From an uncultured bacterium (GTDB taxonomy: Bacteria > Krumholzibacteriota > Krumholzibacteriia > LZORAL124-64-63), in contig CAVSGO010000007.1 in assembly GCA_963727525.1 (NCBI GenBank), forward strand, positions 1,312,001 to 1,376,000: a DNA stretch of 64,000 nucleotides, in the 5' to 3' direction. Below the pieces are notes generated by a model. It saw only the letters and a list, made by a program, of their open reading frames with translations. It was not told the origin of the DNA and did not search any database. Each line of letters opens with the position of its first letter. Position 1 is the first letter of the stretch. Shown piece after piece: positions 49,629-64,000 of the stretch. The translations under genes were made by a program, and so were the position numbers.

Positions 49629-52364
49629 TCACGCCGACGGCGGCGCGCTCTCGATCGCGCTCCGTACCTTGCGGGCCAGCTCGGCGCGCGAAAACGGTTT
49701 CGGGAGAAAGTTGACGCCGTCGTCGAGCACGCCGCGGTGGGCGATGACGTTGGGCGTATAGCCCGACATGAACAGCGTCCGTACCCGCGGGTGTTGCGCC
49801 TCGAGCCTCCTCGCAAGCTCGCGCCCGTTCATATCCGGCATGACGACGTCGGTGATCAGCAGATCGATCGCGCCGTCCTGGTGCGCCGCCACCGTCAGTG
49901 CCTCGCCCGGCGTGCTGGCGGTGATCACGACGTACCCGAGTCCTTCCAGCATCACAGCGCCGAGCGCGAGGATCGATGGCTCGTCTTCCACGAGCAGGAT
50001 CGTCTCGCCGTGGCCGACCGGGGGTGCCTCGTCGACGACGACGTCCGCGTCCGTGACCGCCCCGCGGTGTCGACGCAGATAGATGCGAAACGTCGTGCCG
50101 TTATCGGGCTCGCTGTAGACGTTGATGAAACCATCGTTCTGCTTCACGATGCCGTATACCGTCGAGAGACCGAGACCGGTGCCTTCCCCCAGCATCTGGG
50201 TGGTGAAGAAGGGCTCGAAGATGCGCCCCTGCACCTCGCGCGTCATGCCGCAACCGTCGTCGCTCACGGTGAGCACGGCATACTGGCCGGGCACGAAACC
50301 GATATGGTCGTCGCAGTAGTCCTGGTCGAGCTCGACGTTCGCCGTCTCGATGGTGATCTTGCCGACGCCCTCGATGGCATTGCGCGCGTTGACGCAGAGG
50401 TTGGCCAGGACCTGGTCGAGCTGCGACGGATCCAGCTTCACCGGCCATACATCGTTGCCGGGCAGCCACGCCAGGTTGATGTCCTCGCCGATCAGGCGTT
50501 TCAGCATGGACAGCAGGTTGCTCACGCTCGCGTCGAGATCGATCACCCGCGGCGCGATGGTCTGCTTGCGCGCAAAGGCCAGGAGCTGGCGAGTGATATC
50601 CGCCGTGCGGAGCCCCGCGTTCAGGATGGCCTCGAGGTCGGCCCGCAACGGATCGCCGGCCGGTACCTGCGCCAGGGCCAGCTCCGCATAGCCGTTGATC
50701 ACGCTGAGCATGTTGTTGAAGTCGTGGGCCACGCCGCCGGCCAGGGTACCCACCGTCTCCATCTTCTGCGCCTGCAGGAGCTGCTGGCGCAGGCCCTCGC
50801 GCTCCGCTTCGGCCTGCTTCTGCTCGGTGATGTCGTGCACGATGGAGTGCACGTACGAGCGCCCCTCCATCTCGATGACCGTGGAGTCCACCACGACGTC
50901 GCGCAGCGCACCGTCGGCCTTGAGGTGCTGCACCTCGAAACGCGAGGCCTCGCCGCTCTCCAGCTGGCTGATCGCCTCCTGCAGTCGTTCGGGCGCCATG
51001 GGATTGATATCGCGCACGTGCATCGTCACGAGTGTCTCGACCGGCCAGCCATAGTATGCGGCCGCCGCCGCGTTCGCGTCGACGATGGCGCCGTCCTGCG
51101 GATCGAAGATCAGCTTCACCGCGCTATGTTTCTCGAACATGTCGCGGAATTTCTGGGCGTCTTCCTGGGCCGCCTGGGCCGCCAGTTTCTGCGCGGTGAT
51201 GACCTCCGAGAAAATGATGATACCCCCCACCTCCCCCGAGGGTTCATACCACGGGCGAATCTCCCAGCGGACCCAGTCGACCGAGCCGTCCGCGCGCGGG
51301 AACGGATCCTCCTCGCTCCGCTCGGTGGCGCCGGCAAGGCAACGCCGGTGGATCTCCTTCCATCTGTCGGTTATCTCGGGAAACACGTCGTAGTGCGAAC
51401 GGCCGATGATGGCACGATCCTCGATGCCGTAGTCCTTCGCGAAACGCCGGCTCGCCGCGATGTAGTGCATTTGCGTGTCGAACATCGCGATGGCCGCTGG
51501 CGCATGCTCGACGAAGAGGCCGAGGATGCGCTCGCTGTGCTCGACTTCCGCCTCGATGCGTCGGCGCGTCGTCACGTCGGTGAAGATGATGAAATCCATC
51601 CCGTCGGCCGACGACTGGCGGAACTCGATGTCGCGGACGGTGCCGTCCTTGCAGGTGACGGCATAGACCAAGGGCTCGGCGATGCCGCCAGTGGCCCTGG
51701 ACCGCGCAACCACCTCGTCCCAGCGACGCCGCGCCACTTCGCGGTACGGAGGGTCGGGGTAGGCCAGCTCCCACCATTCGGCGATCGATGGGATCTCGGC
51801 CAGCGTGTAGCCGAAGAATTCGGTGAAGCGCGGACTGACGTAGAGGACCTGCCCTTGCCCATCGGTGATGGCGATGGCAAGCGGCGCCGACGCGGCGAAC
51901 GCGCGGAAACGCGCCTCGCTGCGTCGCAGCGCCGCCTCCACCTCGCGTCGCTCGGAAATGTTGCGCACGAAGACCAGCGCCCCCTGCTCGCCCTGGTACG
52001 TGATCGGTTCGCCCCGGGTCTCCACCCAGACCTCGCCGCCGTCGGGGCGCAAAAAGCGAATCTCGCGCAATTCGGTGATGGAAGTGCGTTCCTCGTTGAG
52101 CAGCCGGATCCGTTGAGCGGCGGCGGCGCGGTCGTCCGGATGGATGCGCTCGAGAACGGCTGTGCCGACCAGTCGCGCCGGCTCCGCCAGTCCGAAGAGA
52201 CGGCAGCAGGCGGAGTTCATGTAGGCGAAGAGTCCGCGCGTCTGGATGAAGATGGGGTCGGGCGCGCTTTCCACCATACTCTGGAAGCGGCGCTCGGACT
52301 CGCCCGCACCGGACGGCTGACCGGCGCCCTCCCAAGGTCGATCATAAAAGGTATCACGTACCAT
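49629..52364 (-). CDS. Cytoplasmic multi-PAS hybrid sensor histidine kinase/receiver
   Basis: About four PAS/PAC units; AGGVAHDFNN, NLCVNAR, DDGCGM, GTGLGL; receiver ILLVEDE...TDVVMP...KPF. Start is uncertain. Confidence 0.92.
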   Translation of the reverse strand: MVRDTFYDRPWEGAGQPSGAGESERRFQSMVESAPDPIFIQTRGLFAYMNSACCRLFGLAEPARLVGTAVLERIHPDDRAAAAQRIRLLNEERTSITELREIRFLRPDGGEVWVETRGEPITYQGEQGALVFVRNISERREVEAALRRSEARFRAFAASAPLAIAITDGQGQVLYVSPRFTEFFGYTLAEIPSIAEWWELAYPDPPYREVARRRWDEVVARSRATGGIAEPLVYAVTCKDGTVRDIEFRQSSADGMDFIIFTDVTTRRRIEAEVEHSERILGLFVEHAPAAIAMFDTQMHYIAASRRFAKDYGIEDRAIIGRSHYDVFPEITDRWKEIHRRCLAGATERSEEDPFPRADGSVDWVRWEIRPWYEPSGEVGGIIIFSEVITAQKLAAQAAQEDAQKFRDMFEKHSAVKLIFDPQDGAIVDANAAAAAYYGWPVETLVTMHVRDINPMAPERLQEAISQLESGEASRFEVQHLKADGALRDVVVDSTVIEMEGRSYVHSIVHDITEQKQAEAEREGLRQQLLQAQKMETVGTLAGGVAHDFNNMLSVINGYAELALAQVPAGDPLRADLEAILNAGLRTADITRQLLAFARKQTIAPRVIDLDASVSNLLSMLKRLIGEDINLAWLPGNDVWPVKLDPSQLDQVLANLCVNARNAIEGVGKITIETANVELDQDYCDDHIGFVPGQYAVLTVSDDGCGMTREVQGRIFEPFFTTQMLGEGTGLGLSTVYGIVKQNDGFINVYSEPDNGTTFRIYLRRHRGAVTDADVVVDEAPPVGHGETILLVEDEPSILALGAVMLEGLGYVVITASTPGEALTVAAHQDGAIDLLITDVVMPDMNGRELARRLEAQHPRVRTLFMSGYTPNVIAHRGVLDDGVNFLPKPFSRAELARKVRSAIESAPPSA

Positions 52365-52560
52365 ATTGTCCGGAGCCCCTCGAGTCTTGCGACAAGCTAG
52401 CACCGACGGCGCGGTCGTGACACCAGAAATCCCCGGTGCGCGCCTCGCAGCGCCCGATCGTCCGCTATCGGCCCGGGATCCTCGCTCTCGACAGACACAC
52501 CGCCACTCCCTATGCTCGCCGGGAACCGCCGGCGCGCCTCGCAGCCGAAAGGACCGGCCC

Positions 52561-54321
52561 ATGCCGTGGCTGATCGTCGCGATCCTCGGCCTCTTCTACC
52601 TGGTCGGGCTCCCCCTGGTCATCTTCCAGGTGATCCTGTTAAGACGGCGGGTGCGCGATCTGGAGCAGCGCCTCGCCTTGCGCGGTCCGCTGGCCGCCCC
52701 GCTACCCGCATCGCCCGGCCCCGCGTCCGCTGGCTCACCGGGCACGGTGGCCCGCCCGCCGCGCGCGGACGCCGGGGGTCTCGAGACGCTGGTGGGCGCG
52801 CGGGGACTCACCTGGGTGGGCGTGCTCGCCATCTTCTTCGGCACCGCGTACTTCGTGGCCCTCGATCTCACGGGCAGCCCGCTGTCCGGTGTGGTGCAGG
52901 TGCTGGTCGAACTCGCGGTGGCGTTGCTCTTCGTGCTCGCCGGTCGCTGGTTCTCCGGACGGGCCGGGCGTTTCCTCGGTCTGAGCCTGCTCGGCGGCGG
53001 CCTGGCGCTCCTCGACCTGGGCGCCTACGGCGCGTACGGTTTCCACCATCTGATCGGCGCCGCGACGGTATACCCCTTTCTCGCCGCGATCGCCGTGCTG
53101 GGTGCGCTGCTCGCCCTGCGGCAGAATGCGGCGGTGATCGCCGCACTCACGCTGGCGGGGGCGCTCCTCGCCCCGCTTATCCTGTCCGTACGGGGCGACC
53201 CGGCCGCGGCGCTCTTTCCCTACCTCGCGGCCGTGAACCTGGGTACCGTGCTGGTGGGGCGCCGCACGGGCTGGGCGGGTCTGCCCCTGGCCGCCTTCTC
53301 CGGCAGTGCGATCCTGCTGGTTGCCTGGGCCGATGCTCACTACGGGCCGGAGCAGCGCCTCGCATTGCTCAGCGTGGCGAGCTGGCTCTGGCTGCTCTAC
53401 GCGATCACCCCCTTGCTCGGCGAAGCGGAGCCGGGCTTCTGGAGCGTGGCGCGCGGTATCGTGGTGCTGGTCGACGGCCTTGCCTTCGCCGGCACGCTCT
53501 GGTTCCTGCTCGGGCCCGAACTGACCGGGCTGCGCGGCGCGACGCTCGCCGGGCTGTCTCTCATCTACGTCGCGAGCGAGCACCTGGCGCGACGACACCT
53601 GCCTGCCAGCCTCGGGCTGGAGCTGACGCGCGTGGCGGGCGTGGCGATCGCGGCGCTCGCCGTACCGGCGCAACTCGACCGCGGCTGGGTGACGCTCGGC
53701 TGGACGGTGCTGGCCGCCGTGCTGTTCTGGACCGATCGCCGCGGTACGAGCGCATGGTACCTTCCGCTCGCGTGCGGCGCTGTCCTCCTGGCACTGGGCA
53801 AGACCGTCACCGTGGATACGGCGGCGCTGTTCGCGGGGAGCGATCGCCCGGACGCCGTGATGAACGGCGGTTTCCTGGCCGGCCTCGCTATCGTGGCGCT
53901 CATGCTGCTCGTGTGCGTCGTGTACGGACGCCGGCCCCGGGACGCACGCGACCGGACGCTGAGCACGCTCGTCCTGGTCGTCGCTCTGGTGCTGCTCCTG
54001 TGGAAGATCACCTTCGAGATGGCCCTCTACTTCGACATCCGCCATGACGTCATGGGCACCGACCAGAACAAGAGACTGCTGCTGTCCTGGTCGCTGGTCT
54101 GGGCGCTCTACGCCTTCGCCGTGACGGCGTGCGGCCTGATCTGGCGCCGCGCCGCGCTGCGCACGCTCGGTCTGGTGTTCGCGGGGATGCTCGTCGTGAA
54201 GGTGTTCCTCATCGATCTACAAGCCCTCGAGCGCGGGTACCGGATCGCCTCGCTCGTGGGCGTGGGCGTGCTGATGCTGGTGGTCTCGATGCTCTTCCAG
54301 CGGCGTCGGGGGTCGGCATGA
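52561..54321 (+). CDS. DUF2339-family polytopic membrane protein
   Basis: LETLVGARGLTWVG motif, many TMs, and C-terminal KVFLIDL..L...YRIAS. Confidence 0.82.
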   Translation: MPWLIVAILGLFYLVGLPLVIFQVILLRRRVRDLEQRLALRGPLAAPLPASPGPASAGSPGTVARPPRADAGGLETLVGARGLTWVGVLAIFFGTAYFVALDLTGSPLSGVVQVLVELAVALLFVLAGRWFSGRAGRFLGLSLLGGGLALLDLGAYGAYGFHHLIGAATVYPFLAAIAVLGALLALRQNAAVIAALTLAGALLAPLILSVRGDPAAALFPYLAAVNLGTVLVGRRTGWAGLPLAAFSGSAILLVAWADAHYGPEQRLALLSVASWLWLLYAITPLLGEAEPGFWSVARGIVVLVDGLAFAGTLWFLLGPELTGLRGATLAGLSLIYVASEHLARRHLPASLGLELTRVAGVAIAALAVPAQLDRGWVTLGWTVLAAVLFWTDRRGTSAWYLPLACGAVLLALGKTVTVDTAALFAGSDRPDAVMNGGFLAGLAIVALMLLVCVVYGRRPRDARDRTLSTLVLVVALVLLLWKITFEMALYFDIRHDVMGTDQNKRLLLSWSLVWALYAFAVTACGLIWRRAALRTLGLVFAGMLVVKVFLIDLQALERGYRIASLVGVGVLMLVVSMLFQRRRGSA

Positions 54322-55616
54322 GGCGCGCTCCCGACCCGCGCCTCTGGCTGCTCGCCGTCGTGATCGGAATGCTGGGAAGCGTGCGCACCCACGCAGCCGT
54401 CCCGGACGCGGTGCGGGGCATGCCGTGGCGCCGCGAGGTGATCGTTCCGCGGATCGCGCCGGGCGACACGGCGGACACCTGGTACCTCATCGAGGCCGAT
54501 TCCCTCCTGGCGGCGGTCACGGACGGCGACCTCGCGAAGGTGCGCCTTGTGGATACCGACGGCGAACCGGTTCCGACCTCCTATCTCGAGCCGACATGGC
54601 CGGAGCTGCGCAGTGTCCCGGTGGCCACGGCCGCCCTGACGTGGCAACCGTCGCCCGGCACGCCGGGCCTGTTCTCGACCGTCGTGGCACTCCCCGCCGG
54701 CGACCACGTGGCCGTGGCCTGGGATGCGAACGACGTGCGCGACGTCCATCTGAGCGGCCGGGCTGTCCGGCCGGCACGCCCGGGCCATCCCCTGGATCCC
54801 TTCGGTGCGCTGTGGACGGATGAGGAGTTGCCGCGGCCATGGCCCGCTGGCGGCCAGCGCGTATGGACCTATCGCGAAGCCGACACGACGACCGCCATCC
54901 TCAGCGTGCGGGTACCGGACGGCCACGCACCGCCGGCCGTGGTCATCCGTCGCCTGCGGGAACGGACCGAACGCCTGCGGGCCGTGTCGTTCGCGCCGCC
55001 CGAGGTGACCTATCAGGGTACCCGCTTCACGGCGAGCGTGCTGCTGGCCAACGGCCCCCGGGCCGTGGCTCGGCTGGTGGTCGAACGGGCCCCGAACGCC
55101 CGCAGCGGACTCGTTGCGGTGGAGCTGCGCGGCCCGGATGGCACGTGGCGGCGGGTCGCGGCCGATCGCGGTACGGATGTCCGCCCGGAGGTCGCGGCCG
55201 CGAAGGCGCGAGCCGAGACGCTTCTCGTGCGCCCACAGCCACGCCTGGCGACGGCGGTGCGTCTGAGCTACGCCCACGCCGAACCGCCCAATCCTCCGTT
55301 CACGCTGCGCGAGATCAGCGAGGTGCCGCCGGCCCTCGCCTTCGCACCGGGCGCGCGAACCCAGGTCTGGCTGGCATACGGCGCGTTCGCCGCCGTGGGC
55401 GCGCCAGGCATCGCCCCGGCCATGCTGCGTACCACGGCTCGGCTGGTGCCGGTGGTCCTCGGTCCCGCGACGGCGAACCCATGGTTCCGCGAGCGAACAC
55501 TCGGGGCAACCTGGCTGCAGCGGCGCCCGGCCGTGCTGACGGTGGCCATGGTCGCGATCCTGGCGGTCGTGGCGTTGCTGCTGGTGAAACCGGCGCCGCG
55601 AGAGCCGCGCCGCTGA
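54318..55616 (+). CDS. Exported protein with C-terminal membrane anchor (DUF3999-like partner of DUF2339)
   Basis: ATGA overlap; signal peptide; DLAKVRLVDTDGEPVP; WLAYG; C-terminal TM followed by a basic tail. Confidence 0.6.
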   Translation: MRRAPDPRLWLLAVVIGMLGSVRTHAAVPDAVRGMPWRREVIVPRIAPGDTADTWYLIEADSLLAAVTDGDLAKVRLVDTDGEPVPTSYLEPTWPELRSVPVATAALTWQPSPGTPGLFSTVVALPAGDHVAVAWDANDVRDVHLSGRAVRPARPGHPLDPFGALWTDEELPRPWPAGGQRVWTYREADTTTAILSVRVPDGHAPPAVVIRRLRERTERLRAVSFAPPEVTYQGTRFTASVLLANGPRAVARLVVERAPNARSGLVAVELRGPDGTWRRVAADRGTDVRPEVAAAKARAETLLVRPQPRLATAVRLSYAHAEPPNPPFTLREISEVPPALAFAPGARTQVWLAYGAFAAVGAPGIAPAMLRTTARLVPVVLGPATANPWFRERTLGATWLQRRPAVLTVAMVAILAVVALLLVKPAPREPRR

Positions 55617-55618
55617 GA

Positions 55619-56464
55619 TCAGCCGGTGGCTTCCGACAGGCCCACGAGCTGCAGGCTGAGCATGCGCAGCTTGCGACGCGCCTGGCGATCATAGACCTGC
55701 GGATGGGCCCGCGCGCGTTGCTTGCCGTCGTAGTATTCCCCCGACTCGCCTTCCACGTCCGGCGACGCCGCAAGGTACAGCACGGAATAGGCGCCATCGT
55801 CGACACTCGTGAGCGGCTCGGCGAAGTAGTCGGTGTCGCGCACCATGCGCGTGTCCATGAGCGACGCCGGATGCAGGGCGTTGACGGTGACTCTCGTCCC
55901 GCGCAGCTTGTCCGCGAGGTCGAAGGTGAACATCACCTGCGCGAGCTTGCTCTGCCGGTACGCGCGCAGGCCATCGTACGCCTTCTCCAGCATCACATCA
56001 TCGAAATCGAGCGGCTGCTGTCCCACCGACGCCACGTTTACCACCCGCGCCGGCGCCGACCGGCGCAGCAAGGGCACGAGCTGATACGTCAGCAGGAACG
56101 GCGCCAGGTAGTTGACGGCGAAGCGAAGCTCGTGACCATCGACGCTCATCTCGCGCGGCTGGTCGCGGTAGCCGCCCCCGATGCCCGCGTTGTTCACCAG
56201 CAGGTCGAGCTGATCGTGCGTGGCGGTCACCGCACTGGCGAGGCGGCGCACCTCGGCCAGCGACGCGAAGTCGGCGCTGTAGTAGCGAAGATTCGCGTTA
56301 CCGGTCTGTTCCTGGATCTCCGCGATCGCGGCGGCGCCCTTCGTCCGATCACGGCCGTGCAGGAGCACCGTCGCCCCCTGGGTGGCCAGGTCGCGCGCAA
56401 TGCGCTTGCCCAGACCATCCGTCGCCCCGGTCACGAGAACAACCTGTTCGCAGATGGGTCGCAT
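55619..56464 (-). CDS. Short-chain dehydrogenase/reductase
   Basis: TGATDGLG, NNAG, VNVAS, YRQSK and LHP. Confidence 0.93.
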   Translation of the reverse strand: MRPICEQVVLVTGATDGLGKRIARDLATQGATVLLHGRDRTKGAAAIAEIQEQTGNANLRYYSADFASLAEVRRLASAVTATHDQLDLLVNNAGIGGGYRDQPREMSVDGHELRFAVNYLAPFLLTYQLVPLLRRSAPARVVNVASVGQQPLDFDDVMLEKAYDGLRAYRQSKLAQVMFTFDLADKLRGTRVTVNALHPASLMDTRMVRDTDYFAEPLTSVDDGAYSVLYLAASPDVEGESGEYYDGKQRARAHPQVYDRQARRKLRMLSLQLVGLSEATG

Positions 56465-56527
56465 GGGATCACCTCACCGGCAGTATCGCGCGGTGCGGCG
56501 TCACTCGCCAGCGCCCGGCCGCGCCTG

Positions 56528-56567
56528 GTGGTGAACATCCCGGTTCAGTGGTAAACATTCCGGTTCA
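56528..56567. repeat. 20-bp direct repeat x2 (2 mismatches) containing the GNAT-HDAC stop codon
   Basis: GTGGTGAACATCCCGGTTCA followed by GTGGTAAACATTCCGGTTCA. Confidence 0.85.
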
Positions 56568-58928
56568 ATCGAGGCGCCAGTGTTCCGTCTGGATCTGCAG
56601 GACCTTCTTCAGCCCAGGCAAGTGATCGAGCCGGCAGTGTTCGAGCCGTGACAGCTCGGCCGGCGTGAGTGCGTCGAGACCCGCGAGTCGCCGCAACACC
56701 ATGCGCCCGGCGGCCTTGATGCCTGCCACGCTGTAGCCGCCCTCGAGCACCCAGGCGATGCGCCCGTCGCATACCTCGGCCGCGATGCGTCCGAGCAGGT
56801 CGGCGATCCAGCGGTAGCCCGCCTCGGTGAGCTGCAGTTCGCCGATGGGATCGTCACGGTGCAGGTCGAAACCACAGGATACGAGCAGGAACTGCGGACG
56901 GTATTGCTGCGCGATCGGCCGCAACAGCCCCCAGAGCAGGCGGGCGTACTCGTCGTCGCCCACGCGACGATCGATCGGCACGTTCACGCTGAACCCGCGT
57001 CCCGGCCCCTCGCCAACTTCGGTGGCGGCGCCGGTGAACGGGTAGGCACCATCGCGATGAATTGAGAAGTACAGCACGTCCGGCCGCTGCCAGAACGCGG
57101 CCTGTGTCCCGTTGCCATGGTGCGCGTCGACGTCGACGATCAGCACGCGCTGCAGGCCGTGATACGTGAGCAGGTGCTGAGCCCCGAGCGCGGCGTTGTT
57201 GAAGTAGCAGAACCCCATGGCCTTGTCGGGCTCGGCGTGGTGTCCGGGCGGCCGCACGAGCGCGAACCCGTGCCGGCCGCGGCCCGCCATGATCTCGTCG
57301 AGCAGATTCAGCAGACCGCCGACGGCGAACAGGGCGGTGTCCTGCACGCGCTCGCTGGCGAGGATCTCCTCGCCCTCGGGCACGGTGCGAGGGCCGAAGG
57401 TGCCGGCACAACGCTGCACGTGCTGGAGCGTGTGCACGCTCTGCAACTCTGCCACCGTGGCCTGGCGCACCGGCACCTTGCGCCAGCGACCCTCGAGTTC
57501 GGGATCGTCGAGGACCTCGAGGAGCGCCCGCAGACGCTTGCCGCTCTCGAACGAGAGGATCTTCTCGAGATGACCAGCGAAGCGATCGTCGATGACCAGG
57601 AGCAGTGGTGGCGTGTCGGGGGCCGAGCCTCGTTCGCGTACCAGGCCGTACTCGTGCGCGTACCGCAGCAGTTCCTCGCACCAGGGTACGCCCTGACCGC
57701 GTTCCACCAGCGCGGCCGCCGCCTCGCCGGCCCAGGGCAACGACCGCTTGGCCCGGAAACACTCCTCGAAGAAGAACGCGCCGGCCACGCGGCGCGACTC
57801 GGTATCCGGCCGCGGGAACGGGTCGCCGATCTCCGCCGCGATCAGGGCCCGTGCCTGGCGGCGCACGAGGAAGCTGATCTCGCGCTGCGTCGACTCGGGC
57901 AGCGAAGGCAGCCGGTTCGCCATCGCCACGATGTTGCGCAGGAAGTGGCCGCGCGGGTCCTCGAGCCGGTAGACGTAGGGCAAGGCATGCACGAACCCGA
58001 GCGACTCGTAGAAATTCACGGCGCCGGGCTCGGCGCGCGCCACGACATTGGCCAGCGTCGGTTCGTAGATCTTCCAGAGGAGCCACGCGCCCGCGAGGAG
58101 CATCGCTCCCGCCCCACGGTGCACCCACTCGCCCCTCACGGGATGGCCGTGGGGCCCGCCCTGCGAGGTGGCGAGGTACCGGATCTCCAGTTCCTGCGGC
58201 CCGGCGCCGGCCGTGAGGCCCACTTCCATCATGCCGGCCAGACGACCGTGTACGATGCAGGCGAAGAGGCGCCTGTGCTCGCCATGCCGCACGACGTCGA
58301 GCACGTGTCGCAGGTTGAAGAACTCCAGGTCGCGGTCGGCGATCTGCAGGAGGCAATCACGCGTCAACGGGAGTTGCACGAAGAGCGCCGAGGTGTCGAC
58401 CTCGACCACGCCCTTGAAGTAGACCGCGGCATGGGCCGGATTCCAGGGCAACGCATCCCCGGGAAAGTCGCCCCGCAGATCCTCGAGCAGGGTAAGGCAA
58501 GCGCTCGCTGTCTCGTCGAGCGGCTCCTGCGCGAGCTGAGCCTCGTAGTGAGCCGACTCCTCGTTGAGGCGGTAGTCGACCAGGTACGCCAGACCGGCGC
58601 GCCGTGCCTCGCGACGCTGACGGGACCGTTGCCAGCCAAAGTCGGGTGACGATTGCCGCCTCTGCTCGCGCAGCGTCCCGTAGGCCAGCAGGAGGCGCTC
58701 CACGAGGGCAGGGAGCCCCTGGTGCAGGTACTGATGCCGGCGCACGTGGATACTCTCGCCATTGAAGGCGAACGCGGGTTCCTGACCCGACCCCGACGCC
58801 ACGTCGTCATCGGGGGGCACCGGCGCGAGCAGACCCCAGGTGATCATCTCGGTCAACGTATGGGCCGCCTCGGCGTCGTGCCCGGCGATTTCGCCGATCG
58901 CCTGCTGCAATGCGTCACGGCCGATCAT
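56565..58928 (-). CDS. GNAT-like acetyltransferase / Zn-dependent HDAC-family deacetylase fusion
   Basis: HDAC motifs RPPGHHA, GFCYFNN, DVDAHHGNGTQ, GFDLHRDDP and LEGGY. GNAT-like LEIRYLAT, HRGAGAMLL and AVNFYESLGF. Start taken at the ATG overlapping the TauE stop. Confidence 0.85.
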   Translation of the reverse strand: MIGRDALQQAIGEIAGHDAEAAHTLTEMITWGLLAPVPPDDDVASGSGQEPAFAFNGESIHVRRHQYLHQGLPALVERLLLAYGTLREQRRQSSPDFGWQRSRQRREARRAGLAYLVDYRLNEESAHYEAQLAQEPLDETASACLTLLEDLRGDFPGDALPWNPAHAAVYFKGVVEVDTSALFVQLPLTRDCLLQIADRDLEFFNLRHVLDVVRHGEHRRLFACIVHGRLAGMMEVGLTAGAGPQELEIRYLATSQGGPHGHPVRGEWVHRGAGAMLLAGAWLLWKIYEPTLANVVARAEPGAVNFYESLGFVHALPYVYRLEDPRGHFLRNIVAMANRLPSLPESTQREISFLVRRQARALIAAEIGDPFPRPDTESRRVAGAFFFEECFRAKRSLPWAGEAAAALVERGQGVPWCEELLRYAHEYGLVRERGSAPDTPPLLLVIDDRFAGHLEKILSFESGKRLRALLEVLDDPELEGRWRKVPVRQATVAELQSVHTLQHVQRCAGTFGPRTVPEGEEILASERVQDTALFAVGGLLNLLDEIMAGRGRHGFALVRPPGHHAEPDKAMGFCYFNNAALGAQHLLTYHGLQRVLIVDVDAHHGNGTQAAFWQRPDVLYFSIHRDGAYPFTGAATEVGEGPGRGFSVNVPIDRRVGDDEYARLLWGLLRPIAQQYRPQFLLVSCGFDLHRDDPIGELQLTEAGYRWIADLLGRIAAEVCDGRIAWVLEGGYSVAGIKAAGRMVLRRLAGLDALTPAELSRLEHCRLDHLPGLKKVLQIQTEHWRLD

Positions 58929-59959
58929 GATGTCCAGAGCGTCTGCAGGTCGGGCCAGAGCTTCCAGAAGGTGAGGGCCACCACCACCAGACTGTAGGCC
59001 GGCACCACGAGGCGCCAGACACGTTCCGGGAACACCCGCGTGATATACGGGGCGATCACCGCCGAGAACGTCGTGGCTAGCATGATGCTCGGCAACAGCA
59101 CGTAGTCGGCCGGCACGCCGCTGGCTCCCATCAGCAACCATGCGATCGCCGCCAAGCCGCACACCACGCCCTCGGAGAGGGCCGTCACCGCGAGCATGCT
59201 CTTCACCGGCACGCCGGATAGCAGGCCGCCGACGGTGACCACCGGCCCGTAGCCGCCGCCGCCCACGCCCTTGTTGAAACCTGCCAGCGCCGCAAAGACG
59301 ATCATGCGATTGGGCCGGTACGGCCGCTCGTGGCGCGACTGCTTGAGCGAGATCAGACCCATCGCCAGCAGCAGAATAGCCACGTAGAGCTTGATCCACA
59401 GGCGATTCACCTCGAATACGCCGTAAATCCCGATCGTCGCTGCGAGCACGAAGACCGTGCCGACGCCGGCGATGATCAGGCACAGCCGCACCGTCTCGCT
59501 CATCGGCCGGAACTTCCACTCGACATTCTGGAACTCGCGATGCAGGAAGGCGCCGATCAGGCCGGCGAAGGACTGCTGGATCAGCACGGCCGGGACGATC
59601 TGGAGGGGATCGAAGCCCATCACCAGGAGCACCGGCGTGAGCGCCGTACCGAACCCCATGCCCGCAGCCGCGTCCATGAACTCGAAGACGAGCGCCAGGA
59701 CCACGACGCCCCAGATGATGCCCCATTCGCGGGTGCCGGCCCACCCGTATTCCGCCATCAGTGGATTACCTGGCAGGCGCGAGCTGTGGGAGGCCAGCCA
59801 GCACCCACCCAGAAAGACCAGAAAGAAGAGAACGACGCTCGCGAGCGCGGCACGCACCTGCCGCCACTCCGGCACGATGCGCTGCCAGACCGAACCCTTC
59901 TCGCGTTCGAGATCGCGCGCGACTTCCCAGCCCATGCGTCGCTCGGGTTTGCGATCCAC
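58925..59959 (-). CDS. Sulfite exporter TauE/SafE (TSUP) family membrane protein
   Basis: EFMDAAAGMGFGTALTP and GFNKGVGGGGYGPVVT repeats. GGGGAGG RBS before GTG. Confidence 0.88.
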   Translation of the reverse strand: MDRKPERRMGWEVARDLEREKGSVWQRIVPEWRQVRAALASVVLFFLVFLGGCWLASHSSRLPGNPLMAEYGWAGTREWGIIWGVVVLALVFEFMDAAAGMGFGTALTPVLLVMGFDPLQIVPAVLIQQSFAGLIGAFLHREFQNVEWKFRPMSETVRLCLIIAGVGTVFVLAATIGIYGVFEVNRLWIKLYVAILLLAMGLISLKQSRHERPYRPNRMIVFAALAGFNKGVGGGGYGPVVTVGGLLSGVPVKSMLAVTALSEGVVCGLAAIAWLLMGASGVPADYVLLPSIMLATTFSAVIAPYITRVFPERVWRLVVPAYSLVVVALTFWKLWPDLQTLWTS

Positions 59960-60124
59960 GGACGCCTCCCCTAGATATTCTCGCCTTGCCACTGGACACG
60001 TGGCGGGAATAATAGCCGAAGTCGCCCCTTTCGGCCCAGTCCTGACATCACGCCGTCCCGAGGTTGACCCGATGCCGGTGCCGATCCATCCCCTGTCCCC
60101 TCTCCGGCTCGCCCGCGCGGTCTC

Positions 60125-60961
60125 GTGGTGGCCGGTATTCCGATCCTACAGACGCTGGACCTGGTGATCGGCGCGCTCGTCCTGCTGTTCTTCCTGATCA
60201 GCGCCTTGATCGAGGACGGCGACGTGTCGGGTGCCCTGGTCGGCGCCATGGGCGTGATGGGGATCATGTTCGTGGTCGGCGCCACGATCGAGGTGATCAT
60301 CGAGGCTCTGCGCGATTTGCCCGGCCTGGGCACGGTGATCGGGTTCATCACGAACGGACCGGAGGCGTTGTGCCTGATCGTCGGCCTGGCCGCCGGCGAC
60401 GTGCTCTTCGCCGCGAGCACGCCCCTCGGCTCGAACTTCATGAATCCGCTGCTGCTCTTGGTGGCGGGGCTGATCACCGGCAGCACGGCACTGATCTTCC
60501 GCCAGCACCGAGCCACGACCCTGATCACCCTGGGCGTGACCGCCATCCTGGCCGGCAGCTTCTTCCTCATCCCCCCGGCGATCTACCCCTGGTGGCTGGC
60601 GGCGACGGTGGCGGTGAGCGTCGTGCTCTTCCTGCGCCGGCCGCCCGAACCGTCCGAGACGGTGGACACCGCCGGACAGATGCCGCGCTGGGCGGTGTTG
60701 CCGGCCGCGCTCCTGCTGGTGGTGGCGGGATATTTCCTCGACCCGGTCGTCGGCTACGCCGCCGCGGCGTCGCACGCGCCCAAGGGCGTGATCGGCTTCT
60801 TCGTGCTGGCGACACTGACGAGCTGGCCGGAGTTCAAGTCCTGCCTGACGCTGCTGCGCCGCGGACGGCCGCTGGCCTCGGTGCTCAACATCACGGTCTC
60901 GAACATCACGAACCTCTGGCTCGCGAGCATCGGCGTGATCATTCACCTGCTCACCCGCTAG
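60125..60961 (+). CDS. Ca2+/cation antiporter (Na/Ca exchanger-like) membrane protein; the true start may be 60072 via a frameshift
   Basis: Alpha-repeat-like motifs ITNGPE...GSNFMN and LTSWPE...SNITN; about 10 TMs. Confidence 0.7.
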   Translation: MVAGIPILQTLDLVIGALVLLFFLISALIEDGDVSGALVGAMGVMGIMFVVGATIEVIIEALRDLPGLGTVIGFITNGPEALCLIVGLAAGDVLFAASTPLGSNFMNPLLLLVAGLITGSTALIFRQHRATTLITLGVTAILAGSFFLIPPAIYPWWLAATVAVSVVLFLRRPPEPSETVDTAGQMPRWAVLPAALLLVVAGYFLDPVVGYAAAASHAPKGVIGFFVLATLTSWPEFKSCLTLLRRGRPLASVLNITVSNITNLWLASIGVIIHLLTR

Positions 60962-60967
60962 CGGGAA

Positions 60968-61558
60968 TCAGTCGGCGTCCAGGGCGGCCTCGATACGTTG
61001 ATGCAGCTCCGGATCGTCCGGCGTCGTCTTCGGGCCGAAACGGGCCACCACGTGTCCTTGCCGGTCCACGAGATATTTCGTGAAGTTCCAGCTCGGCTCG
61101 TCCAGCGCCTGGGTGAGGTACCGGAACACGTTGGAGCGCTTCTCGCCCTTCACGTGATCCTTCCACATCAGCGGGAAGGTGATGTGGTACGTCGTGTCGC
61201 AGAACGTGCGGATCTCGTCAGGCGTGCCCGGCTCCTGATTCATGAAGTCGTTGCTGGGAAAGGCAAGGATCACGAAGCCTCGCGGTGCCAGCTCCTGGTA
61301 CAACTTCTCCAGTCCCTCGTACTGCGGGGTGAAGCCGCATTTGCTGGCGGTGTTGACCACCAGCATCACCTTGCCCGCGTACTTGTCGAGATTCACGGGG
61401 TGTCCGTCGATCGCGCGCGCGACCATGCCGTACAGCGTGCCCGGGACCTCGCGCGACGGCTCCTGCACGTCCGCAGCGAGGGCGCTGGCGACACGCAGCG
61501 CCACGAATGTGCCCGCGATCACGACGGCCACGGCCAGTGTGATGACGACGGTCTTCAT
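60968..61558 (-). CDS. Cys-type glutathione peroxidase-family protein with N-terminal signal/anchor
   Basis: NTASKCGFTPQY, FPSNDFMNQEP and WNFTKYLV. Confidence 0.93.
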   Translation of the reverse strand: MKTVVITLAVAVVIAGTFVALRVASALAADVQEPSREVPGTLYGMVARAIDGHPVNLDKYAGKVMLVVNTASKCGFTPQYEGLEKLYQELAPRGFVILAFPSNDFMNQEPGTPDEIRTFCDTTYHITFPLMWKDHVKGEKRSNVFRYLTQALDEPSWNFTKYLVDRQGHVVARFGPKTTPDDPELHQRIEAALDAD

Positions 61559-61659: not shown

Positions 61660-63207
61660 CTAGAGCAGCCGCGCCAGCGCGTCCCTGCGCACCTTGCCGG
61701 CCGCGCTGCGCGGTAGATTCGCCAGGAAGTGCACACCCCGCGGAATCTTGTACATGGCGAGGTTCTCGCGGCAGTGAGCGAGTACGCGCTCGGCCGGCAG
61801 CGCAGCGCCGGGAATGGGCACGACGAAGGCCTCGACCGCCTCGCCGAGCAACTCGTCCGGCACGCCGATCACGCTGATCTCCGCCACCTCGGGCAGTTCG
61901 GCGATCACGTCCTCGATCTCGCGCGGGCTCACCCGATTGGCACCGACCTTGATCATATTCTTGATGCGATCGACCAGGAAGATGTAGCCCTCGGCGTCCT
62001 TACGTCCGAGATCGCCGGTGTGCAGACCGTCGCGGTCGAGAACGAGGGCCGTCTCGGCCGGGTCGTTCCAGTAGCCCTGCATGATGTTGTCGCCCGTGGC
62101 CACGACCTCGCCCACCTCGTCCACGCCGCACTCACGCCCGCCCTCGCCACGGATGATGAGCTGCACGCCGGGGATCGGCAGCCCGATGCTCCCGAGCTTG
62201 TCGGACAGCCGCTCGGGGGGCACGTAGCTGAGGCGCGCGCTGGCTTCCGTCTGGCCATACATCACGAAGAGTCGCACGTGCGCCGGCAGCGCCTCGAGCA
62301 GGCGTCGCTTCAACGGCACCGTCATGCCACCACCGGCCTGGGTGAGGTAACGCAGATCGGGCCACGGCCGCCGCAGGAAATCGGTGCGTGCCGCCAGGAT
62401 GGCGTAGGTCGAAGGCACGCCGGAGAACCCGCTCACCTTGCTGCTCGCAATGGCATCGACCACCGCGGCCGGATAGGCGAAGCGGTTGTCCACGACGATC
62501 CGCCCGCCCACGGCCACGTGGGTCAGCAACAGGGAGTTGCCGAAACTGTAGTGGAAGGGCAGCACACAGAGCACGCTGTCGCGAGCCGTCAGCTCCAGGT
62601 AGGCCAGGATCTGCTGCGTATTGGCGACGAGGTTGCCGTGCGTGAGAGTCACGCCGCGGGGCCGTCCCGTGGAACCGCTCGTGTAGAGGATGGCCGCGAG
62701 ATCGTCGGGGCCGCACCGCGGCGCCGGACACGCGTCGCTGCACGCGGCCAGCTCGGCCGGTCCCAGCAGTGTCACGGACTCGGGCAGATCCCATGCGGGA
62801 TTGAATCGATCCAGCAGCACGAAACGGAGGTTCGGCGCGCCCTGGATCAGGGCCGGCAGATCCCGCCGCACCTGGGCAGCCACGGTGACCAGCCCCACGG
62901 CACCGCTGTCCTGCAGGAGTTCGGCCGTCGTGCGCGCCTTGTTCGCGCTGTTGAGGGCCACGCAGCAGGCCCCGGCCTTCAGGATGCCGAAGAAACCCTC
63001 GACGTAGGCGCGGCCGTTCTCCGCGAGCAGCCCGACCCGATCGCCGCGATCCACGCCCTGCGCGAGCAGGCGGTTGGCGACGCGGTTGGCACTCGCATCC
63101 AGGTCACCGTACGTGAGATGGGTATCGCCGTGCTCGAAGGCGACGACGCCGGACGCCGAACCGGCACTCGTCTCCAGCAGTTCCGCGACCGTGCGGGGGG
63201 ACGACAT
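61660..63207 (-). CDS. Class I adenylate-forming enzyme (acyl-CoA/acyl-ACP ligase)
   Basis: YTSGSTGRPRG, MYGQTE, LHTGDLG and terminal GKV. Confidence 0.92.
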   Translation of the reverse strand: MSSPRTVAELLETSAGSASGVVAFEHGDTHLTYGDLDASANRVANRLLAQGVDRGDRVGLLAENGRAYVEGFFGILKAGACCVALNSANKARTTAELLQDSGAVGLVTVAAQVRRDLPALIQGAPNLRFVLLDRFNPAWDLPESVTLLGPAELAACSDACPAPRCGPDDLAAILYTSGSTGRPRGVTLTHGNLVANTQQILAYLELTARDSVLCVLPFHYSFGNSLLLTHVAVGGRIVVDNRFAYPAAVVDAIASSKVSGFSGVPSTYAILAARTDFLRRPWPDLRYLTQAGGGMTVPLKRRLLEALPAHVRLFVMYGQTEASARLSYVPPERLSDKLGSIGLPIPGVQLIIRGEGGRECGVDEVGEVVATGDNIMQGYWNDPAETALVLDRDGLHTGDLGRKDAEGYIFLVDRIKNMIKVGANRVSPREIEDVIAELPEVAEISVIGVPDELLGEAVEAFVVPIPGAALPAERVLAHCRENLAMYKIPRGVHFLANLPRSAAGKVRRDALARLL

Positions 63208-63215
63208 GAGTCCAC

Positions 63216-63467
63216 CTACGCCGCGGCCTGCTTGCGCGTGACGAAGTTCACGAGGTTGTCCACCGAGTCCAGGTTCTCCGGCACCAGTTCCTCGTCGGCC
63301 ACCTGGACACCGTGGTCCTTCTCCAGGAACGCCACCAGCTCCATCACGCCCACCGAATCGATGATGCCGCTGTCCAGCAGCGACATGGTGTCGTTCTGCA
63401 TCGGGGCGCCGTCACCGAAGAGGAAGTTCTCGATGATGTAGGCTCGAATACTCTCACGCATGTCCAT
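63216..63467 (-). CDS. Acyl carrier protein
   Basis: GIIDSVGVMELV phosphopantetheine motif; ENLDSV; GAGGAG RBS. Confidence 0.92.
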   Translation of the reverse strand: MDMRESIRAYIIENFLFGDGAPMQNDTMSLLDSGIIDSVGVMELVAFLEKDHGVQVADEELVPENLDSVDNLVNFVTRKQAAA

Positions 63468-64000
63468 GGGGCTCCTCGCAGGGGGTCGGATTGCGCCAGG
63501 CGAGCGCCATCGGCGCCAGGGCGGCGTCATCAATCCGGTGATGGTAATCGGCACCGAAGAGGTCGGCAAGAATCTGGCCCGTGAGCACGCCGACGAAACC
63601 CATCGTCTCGCGCGCGCTGGTCAAGCGACCGGCCTCCCACTTGCGCAGGAGACTGGCCACACGGGTCGGCTCCCACAGGCCCGCCCCGGCCACAGTGGCC
63701 GGCGCGAGTCGCTCCTTCACGAGCCGGCGCCCCGCATCGCTGCCGAGGCACGCGAGGTCGGGCGCCCGGTACGGCAGCTTGGGACGGCGGACTATGGCCG
63801 GCGGCAGGAGATCGGCGACGGCGGCGCGCAGGATATCCTTCTCGGCCAGACACGGGAGTTTCACGCTGGCGGGCAGCGAGCCGGCCAGCTCGGCCACGTG
63901 CACGTCGAGAAAGGGGAATCGCCCCTCCACCGAGTTGCCCATGAGCATGCGGTCACCCTGGCTGCTGAGCAGGTAGCCGGCCAGAAATGTCGTCATCTCC
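63454..64000 (-). CDS. asnB: Asparagine synthase (glutamine-hydrolysing)-like amidotransferase, C-terminal part (truncated by the window)
   Basis: LLSSQGDRMLMGNSVEGRFPFLD, EKDILR and RPKLPYRAP. Confidence 0.88.
   Translation of the reverse strand, partial: EMTTFLAGYLLSSQGDRMLMGNSVEGRFPFLDVHVAELAGSLPASVKLPCLAEKDILRAAVADLLPPAIVRRPKLPYRAPDLACLGSDAGRRLVKERLAPATVAGAGLWEPTRVASLLRKWEAGRLTSARETMGFVGVLTGQILADLFGADYHHRIDDAALAPMALAWRNPTPCEEPHGHA

Follow-up and report, generated by a model that had tools for sequence, protein, structure and literature searches.

A 64,000-nucleotide (nt) stretch from an uncultured member of the Krumholzibacteriota (assembly GCA_963727525.1, contig CAVSGO010000007.1, positions 1,312,001 to 1,376,000; hereafter the window, in whose positions all coordinates are given) carries on its minus strand a gene for a 787-amino-acid (aa) protein in which a module with a predicted GNAT acetyltransferase fold precedes a class-II HDAC-type zinc deacetylase domain. 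The fusion of these two parts is real, old and reversible. By analogy with AcuA and AcuC, the protein may work as a single-chain writer-eraser of protein lysine acetylation, a reading to which we give a probability of roughly one half.

Enzymes of reversible acetylation are already known, and what is new here is that they are fused or share an operon, and that the GNAT module had not been profiled before. Within the limits of the literature searched, a natural single-chain acetyltransferase-deacetylase is probably previously undescribed. Indeed, full-text searches, conducted largely outside subscription journals, returned no description of a GNAT-HDAC fusion, of the module or of a bifunctional acetylation enzyme, and no such fusion appears in the available passages of a survey of bacterial classical deacylases (PMC11532494, main text), of PMC13039410 or of an Asgard chromatin preprint. 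With two opposed activities on a single scaffold, the protein would be a small system in which to study how futile cycling is avoided. In addition, its divergent GNAT-containing module of ~430 aa escapes current profile libraries and is not rare, and the repeated genomic association of acetylation enzymes with two-component signalling and with CBS proteins is open to direct testing.

Anatomy and conserved residues of the fused protein

The open frame over the gene spans 56565..59744 on the minus strand. The start was placed at the ATG at 58928, since the equivalent M/V-I-x-R opens the sequence of each of the 22 full-length relatives. In addition, this ATG shares an ATGA with the stop codon of the TauE-like gene upstream. 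Both observations uphold the frame of ~787 aa (56565..58928) that had been proposed in an initial annotation made from the letters of the window. Other open reading frames of the region are mostly shadows, since its G+C content is 66-70%. The full-length AlphaFold2 model reached a predicted local distance difference test (pLDDT) score of 81.3 and a predicted template-modelling (pTM) score of 0.82, and a model of the N-terminal half (residues 1-440), built on a 46-row alignment, reached 91.7 and 0.91, respectively. A search of NCBIfam with the whole protein gave no family at E≤1. The domains delimited on this basis are listed in Table 1.

The C-terminal domain matches Pfam Hist_deacetyl (PF00850) over residues 461-746, with an E value of 4e-87 and 292.7 bits against a cut-off of 27.9. 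In a sequence search of the PDB, H563-H564, D599, D601, H603, D688 and G730-G731-Y732 aligned to the catalytic residues of HDAC6. The same residues are invariant in 23 close and 23 diverse fused relatives, and the equivalent His dyad, Asp/His/Asp zinc ligands and Tyr are invariant in 15 HDAC genes of the split form described below. The intact His dyad, D-x-H and D ligands and GGY tyrosine that had been recognized by eye are thus confirmed. HDAC6 is the nearest solved protein by sequence (1e-105 over its two catalytic domains), followed by Arabidopsis HDA15 (5e-58) and by Pseudomonas aeruginosa HDAH, an 'acetoin utilization protein' (5e-53); a Foldseek search with the full-length model gave target-normalised template-modelling scores of 0.71-0.79 to HDAC4, HDAC6, HDAC7 and HDAH. 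The domain therefore resembles class IIb HDACs and HDAH (5g0x/5li3) in a match across the whole catalytic domain (E 1e-105 to 5e-53), in its catalytic residues and in a hydrophobic gatekeeper. It differs from them in the 440-aa N-terminal module in front and in the L1 loop, where S459-F-E-S-G-K-R465 stands in place of H-P-E-x-P-x-R of HDAC6. The initial annotation had correctly read this loop as SFE instead of HPE; its Arg is kept, R465 being invariant in the 23 close and 23 diverse fused relatives.

The gatekeeper position is occupied by I695 (in D-D-P-I-G), which is Ile or Leu in 23 relatives and aligns to Leu in the second catalytic domain of HDAC6 and to Lys in the first. According to passages of PMC5454378, a Leu or Met gatekeeper goes with lysine deacetylases and a Glu with the polyamine deacetylase HDAC10; by this rule, the acidic Glu of polyamine deacetylases of the HDAC10 and acetylpolyamine amidohydrolase type is absent, its place being taken by I695. 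Judged by these residues, the domain appears to be an active deacylase of the lysine type.

That the middle segment adopts a GNAT fold is clear from its predicted structure, whereas its sequence gives weak signals. The three motifs first noted in it, LEIRYLAT, HRGAGAMLL and AVNFYESLGF, lie at residues 247-254, 270-278 and 303-312 (window 57993-58190), and in the predicted model the elements over residues 169-322 follow the GNAT order beta1-alpha1-alpha2-beta2-beta3-beta4-alpha3-beta5-alpha4-beta6. Whether this segment would model as a GNAT fold had been set beforehand as a check, and the fold was found both in the predicted structure and by structure search. The 46-row alignment of the N-terminal half holds seven invariant columns (G232, E248, G272, G274, E300, F306 and Y307), all of them within the GNAT domain. 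We take E248 to be the beta4 site that serves as general base in many GNATs, G272-x-G274 to be the pyrophosphate loop (motif A), and E300, at the end of beta5, to stand in the place of the motif-B Asn. F306-Y307 presumably corresponds to the F-Y of alpha4, Y307 being the alpha4 Tyr that is often the general acid.

This pattern extends to the whole chain. In an alignment of 23 diverse full-length fused relatives, from which mean pairwise identities and invariant positions of the fused form were taken, identity is 0.31 in the N-terminal part, 0.39 in the GNAT region (0.42 without the 255-270 loop), 0.24 in the helical region and 0.51 in the HDAC domain. Out of 67 invariant positions, 15 fall in the N-terminal half, nine of these in the GNAT domain (G232, E248, G272, G274, W282, E300, F306, Y307 and G311), and 52 in the C-terminal half from H453 onward, where 49 lie within the Pfam HDAC match. 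In both domains, the never-varying residues cluster where catalytic residues would be expected. This speaks for two functional active sites and, with regard to the GNAT domain, makes an active enzyme more likely than a pure sensor. The presence of a GNAT fold and an intact-looking HDAC domain in one chain is therefore upheld, with the fusion conserved among relatives.

The remaining parts of the module are less easily named. Residues 1-160 comprise, in the model of the N-terminal half, two short helices, a small three-stranded sheet and three long helices; they match no Pfam or NCBIfam family, residues 1-165 gave no usable match in the ESM Atlas, and the matches listed in a structure search with the same model were taken up by the GNAT domain. 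The ~190-aa N-terminal region that had been left unassigned is accordingly real and without a family match, and its extent is smaller than first drawn, with the GNAT fold starting near residue 165. The segment behind the GNAT domain had been described as a helical linker. It is indeed helical, and rather than a loose linker it is a conserved five-helix region (327-338, 345-368, 374-391, 398-410 and 415-426 in the same model), in which E388-E389-C390-F391-R392 is invariant within the close clade and P415 is invariant in a 17-row alignment made of the N-terminal half of the window protein, 15 relatives without HDAC domain and the frameshifted fragment P0029. The five-helix region is also found in stand-alone module proteins. 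As for additional domains, a metagenomic representative of 575 aa (P0040) carries a PilZ domain (E 2.8e-10) before the GNAT module with no HDAC domain in the chain, which hints that second-messenger input domains can attach to the module. That the N-terminal region might set the switch, as first suggested, lacks direct support, and this PilZ domain is the one hint in that direction.

Table 1. Coordinates of the gene, its parts and its neighbours in the window
Feature	Position	Strand	Remark
Whole gene	56565..58928	-	787 aa: N-terminal region, GNAT fold, helical region and HDAC domain
N-terminal region, residues 1-160	58449..58928	-	alpha/beta plus helices; secondary structure from the model of the N-terminal half
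GNAT-fold domain, residues 165-325	57954..58436	-	predicted fold
Five-helix region, residues 327-430	57639..57950	-	between GNAT and HDAC domains
Class-II HDAC-type zinc deacetylase domain, residues 442-787 plus stop	56565..57605	-	Pfam PF00850, E 4e-87
SDR (short-chain dehydrogenase/reductase) oxidoreductase	55619..56464	-	Pfam adh_short, E 5e-35; 100 nt downstream of the gene
TauE/SafE (TSUP) permease	58925..59992	-	directly upstream; Pfam TauE, E 1.1e-18
Membrane protein, 278 aa, divergent	60125..60961	+	Pfam Na_Ca_ex, weak, 27.4 bits vs cut-off 24.9
Glutathione peroxidase	60968-61558	-	
Acyl-CoA ligase	61660-63207	-	generic; best NCBIfam model an exosortase-A-associated ligase, below cut-off
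Asparagine-synthase-like gene	63454-63996	-	

Fused and split forms among relatives

Out of 8000 proteins scored in a word-indexed search, 28 matched at E≤0.001. Besides the window protein itself, they comprise 5 shorter fragments and 22 relatives of full length, which measure 743-809 aa and are 47-74% identical. With residues 1-440 as query, exhaustive HMMER searching reached further, to 71 cluster representatives (50% clustering) at E≤0.001, of which 38 scored at ≤1e-30. When 41 distant representatives were scanned with Pfam, 23 had an HDAC domain behind the module, one had a PilZ domain in front of it and 17 showed no other Pfam domain, many of the latter being ~430 aa long and ending where the HDAC domain would start.

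The same alternation is seen at the level of genes. In species-representative genomes, the 17-row alignment found 56 module loci (57 with the window). Module and HDAC domain share one open reading frame in 31 of the 56, and in 22 the HDAC domain is a separate gene directly downstream, at a gap of -34 to +394 nt; two further loci lie at contig ends, and one (L055) is an orphan. The search for the same architecture and its neighbourhood that had been proposed with the initial annotation thus found the fused form both in the 22 close relatives and in more than half of the loci. The annotation had also named separate genes in homologues as a reason to give it up; this is literally the case in the 22 split loci, against the 31 fused ones. 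However, alternation of fusion and fission is a Rosetta-stone link, and it therefore argues for a functional link between the two domains, not against it. The split forms are not assembly errors, because the same overlap recurs in independent assemblies.

In a tree of 52 module sequences, made by a quick method and with several long branches flagged, the fused and split states are structured by clade and require at least three changes, of which the starred branches force only one. A complex prediction for the split pair of locus L042 (module of 436 aa and HDAC of 350 aa) scored 0.00, which counts neither way. The window protein forms a clade with those of loci L001-L004 (59-61% identity) on a long, fully supported branch. 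The other 52 loci have 26-42% identity (best tblastn segment) and come mostly from metagenome-assembled genomes (MAGs) of Desulfobacterales and other 'delta' lineages. One relative is labelled Candidatus Krumholzibacteria by its source. Within the phylum of the window, the module was present in 9/201 sampled genomes, all of one family, and one genus carried it in 6 of its 9 genomes.

Two loci depart from these forms. The orphan module gene (L055:8001-9392) has no HDAC gene within 7.9 kb downstream and may be an orphan paralogue, the same MAG holding a split module-HDAC pair (L049). In L004:9297-10185, the match to the HDAC part is split over two frames and lacks ~85 residues in between, as in a broken gene or an assembly error.

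Proposed function and its alternatives

Bacterial lysine acetylation is widespread, and its enzymatic control is known from few systems (Pat/CobB and AcuA/AcuB/AcuC). In the scheme we propose, the GNAT domain would use acetyl-CoA to N-acetylate a target, a protein lysine, and the class-II HDAC-type zinc deacetylase would hydrolyse the same mark. The conserved helical scaffold (residues 1-160 and 327-430) would hold the two enzymes together and act as a docking surface, and the net direction would be set by acetyl-CoA supply and partner proteins. The single bifunctional switch of the initial annotation agrees with the anatomy, the fusion and the catalytic signatures, its writer and eraser activities being only inferred; the same holds for the choice of a protein lysine as target and for a reciprocal regulation of the two activities. 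In the deltaproteobacterial relatives, candidate substrates are the adjacent acetyl-CoA synthetase, or else the dCache kinase or the REC-CBS regulator encoded nearby.

The neighbourhood in these relatives was tallied with tblastn on the same strand, over loci with enough flank, with Pfam run on representative loci. A dCache histidine kinase lies directly upstream in 34/43 eligible loci, a REC-CBS response regulator upstream in 32/39 and a TauE permease upstream in 25/30; a second dCache kinase follows downstream in 32/45 and a single-domain receiver in 25/38. In 10/57 loci, a true acetyl-CoA synthetase (AcsA; TIGR02188, 997 bits vs a cut-off of 725) is found downstream of the HDAC gene. All ten belong to split-form clades, with AcsA directly after the HDAC gene in seven and within ~5 kb in the rest, and AcsA is often followed by a major facilitator superfamily (MFS) transporter; the carboxylate- and sulfate-type transporters of the relatives' loci comprise CitMHS, Na_sulph_symp and MFS proteins.

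By analogy, this neighbourhood is strongly reminiscent of acsA-acuABC. According to the abstracts of PMC13121692 and PMC13039410, AcuA acetylates AcsA, AcuC deacetylates it, and AcuB, a protein with CBS and ACT domains, binds and inhibits AcuC. As in AcuA/AcuB/AcuC of Bacillus subtilis, a GNAT-type writer and a zinc HDAC-type eraser are encoded together, AcsA is nearby in some of the loci, and a CBS protein that recalls AcuB stands alongside in most of those eligible. In contrast to AcuA and AcuC, writer and eraser form here one chain or are neighbouring genes, the module preceding the HDAC, and in contrast to AcuA the GNAT domain belongs to a larger module (~430 aa) that has additional N-terminal and helical parts. 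The CBS protein of the relatives likewise differs from AcuB in having a receiver domain instead of ACT and in being flanked by dCache histidine kinases. A PDB sequence search with this REC-CBS neighbour was uninformative on an AcuB-like CBS relation, the matches listed being all receiver domains.

Other multidomain and bifunctional enzymes provide further terms of comparison. In Pat/PatZ-type acetyltransferases the partner domain is a sensor, and in the window protein it is the opposing enzyme, with a GNAT domain that remains below the Pfam thresholds. GlnE, AceK and bifunctional histidine kinases combine modifying and de-modifying activities in one polypeptide and have been called 'paradoxical'. 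The window protein would resemble enzymes of the GlnE/AceK type in having both activities for one mark in one chain, as far as its sequence suggests, and differs from them in that they use adenylylation or phosphorylation, not acetylation. Along this line, both domains might act on the same lysine, with the scaffold picking the winner; the deltaproteobacterial form would then operate within a phosphorelay, of which the window version would be a stripped-down variant with TauE. In the phosphorelay version, the dCache kinase would phosphorylate the REC-CBS adaptor, an analogue of AcuB, which in turn would gate the deacetylase, so that an extracellular carboxylate signal and the adenylate/acetyl-CoA state would be translated into acetylation of acetyl-CoA synthetase or of signalling proteins. 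We hold this elaboration to be possible, albeit tentative.

Several observations weigh against a single-chain writer-eraser of the AcuA/AcuC kind. On the side of the GNAT domain, all Pfam matches of the window protein are sub-threshold (Acetyltransf_10, E 0.0024 and 18.3 bits vs a cut-off of 23.6; Acetyltransf_7, E 0.028), and a single one of the 41 scanned relatives (P0072, 25.1 bits) passes a Pfam GNAT cut-off. When the module profile was compared with PDB chains, solved GNATs were marginal (best E 0.017); AcuA was absent from the 11 matches at E≤5, two of which were unrelated designed proteins, and NCBIfam gave no match to AcuA either, with no direct sequence comparison to AcuA having been made. 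Motif A of GNATs, the pyrophosphate loop, reads Q/R-x-x-G-x-G/A. The loop of the window protein (V-H-R271-G272-A-G274-A-M) has an ambiguous register against this canonical motif, and a count from R271 puts Met in sixth place; furthermore, predicted models place a 17-residue low-confidence insertion (254-270) directly before G272-x-G274. On the side of the mechanism, a writer joined to an eraser would cycle futilely if left unregulated, so that a regulatory step must be assumed. Finally, the genomic context of the window lacks the presumed partners. Neither AcsA nor the CBS protein adjoins the gene in this genome, unlike at the AcuA/AcuC locus, and the kinase, REC-CBS and AcsA context is missing from the whole window clade (window and L001-L004). 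The AMP-binding gene of the window was considered as an AcsA-type substrate and rejected, as it is a generic acyl-CoA ligase and not AcsA. The AcsA of the genome lies on contig 7 at 2056414-2058282, ~0.69 Mb from the gene, and has a stand-alone HDAC gene of 358 aa ~6 kb away, which may here serve AcsA as its conventional partner of the AcuC kind.

Part of this evidence can also be read differently, in that the GNAT-fold module could be an acyl-CoA sensor or a docking or regulatory subunit that controls the HDAC domain as AcuB controls AcuC, leaving a regulated eraser only. The weak GNAT sequence signals, the unusual insertion before the cofactor loop and the conservation of large non-catalytic helical parts with the module would fit such a role, as would the PilZ input domain of P0040 and the orphan module of L055. 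Yet invariance goes beyond G272 and G274 to E248, E300 and Y307, which we presume to occupy catalytic or acceptor-side positions that a sensor would not need, and this makes the sensor the less likely of the two readings. The pair could also act on a small molecule, such as an amine or amino-sulfonate moved by the TauE/TSUP permease, or serve to protect and release an intermediate of a metabolic pathway. The TauE gene does overlap the start of the fused gene and lies upstream in most eligible relatives, CitMHS, Na_sulph_symp and MFS transporters occur in relatives, an SDR gene follows the gene in the window, and propanil and dimethoate hydrolases and acetylpolyamine amidohydrolase are among the PDB matches of the HDAC domain. 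However, the gatekeeper is a hydrophobic Ile/Leu as in lysine deacetylases and differs from the Glu of HDAC10. In the PDB, HDAC6, HDA15 and HDAH match best by sequence. Signalling proteins dominate a context with no conserved biosynthetic genes, and for a single chain to run both opposite reactions on a free metabolite would be futile. An action on small molecules is thus unlikely. The top structural matches of the GNAT domain include the aminoacyl-tRNA-acetylating toxins TacT2, TacT3 and AtaT and a 'bacterial toxin' entry (7byy), from which one could picture a self-contained growth-control module made of a toxin-like GNAT, acetylating tRNA or N-termini, and a neutralising deacetylase; we regard this as highly improbable. 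The single-chain writer-eraser of protein lysine acetylation remains the reading we prefer.

Gene neighbourhood in the window and further observations

The gene immediately upstream encodes the TauE/SafE permease, whose true start is likely near 59935, at the M of MGWEVARDLE. This permease is 62% identical to the TauE of a Desulfobacteraceae MAG (L007:3237-4274), against only ~31% for the module of the same locus, and TauE queries at ≥50% coverage gave no match in L001-L004. The high identity could reflect either a separate acquisition or a much stronger constraint. A homologue of the divergent Na_Ca_ex-like gene adjoins the fused gene in 5/5 loci of the window clade, and the acyl-CoA ligase is kept upstream in 4/5. 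A 199-aa open reading frame at 59971-60570 (-), rich in Arg, Pro, Ser and Thr, was considered as a conserved neighbour and rejected, since it shadows the divergent membrane gene, which runs on the plus strand. A scan of 55400-60300 found one promoter-like site, at 59986-60013 (+), before the divergent membrane gene, and three terminator-like sites, which is not above shuffled sequences (mean 1.8). A look-up of public sequencing runs covering 56400-60000 listed none, RNA included.

On the downstream side, the SDR query matched 1/57 loci, counting the window itself, and it is possible that the SDR gene is an operon member in this genome only. The block from the SDR gene to a sensor kinase gene (~49.6-56.5 kb) is specific to this genome, because an aconitase gene directly follows the fused gene in L001.

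Elsewhere in the genome, AcsA is a 674-aa open reading frame with ACAS_N and AMP-binding domains (region L060, contig 7, 2054000-2068000). Behind the stand-alone HDAC gene near it lies an M20 peptidase gene in the opposite orientation, and the genome also encodes one sirtuin.

In the relatives, a gene for a protein of ~175 aa with 2-3 hydrophobic segments and a Cys/His-rich stretch (L007:4365-4892 and homologues), which matches no Pfam or NCBIfam family, sits between the TauE and REC-CBS genes in 26/34 eligible loci. In L007 it is followed by a DUF1232 gene, and the DUF1232 query from this locus found 4/57 loci.

Within the block downstream of the fused gene, the open reading frames at 54.1-55.6 kb match no family. 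They lie beside a gene for a DUF2339 predicted membrane protein (52366-54321, +; E 6.6e-47), in a stretch of 70-72% G+C with an AT skew down to -0.38. The block ends with a 977-aa hybrid sensor kinase (49629-52562, -) that combines several PAS domains with HisKA, HATPase_c and a receiver domain.

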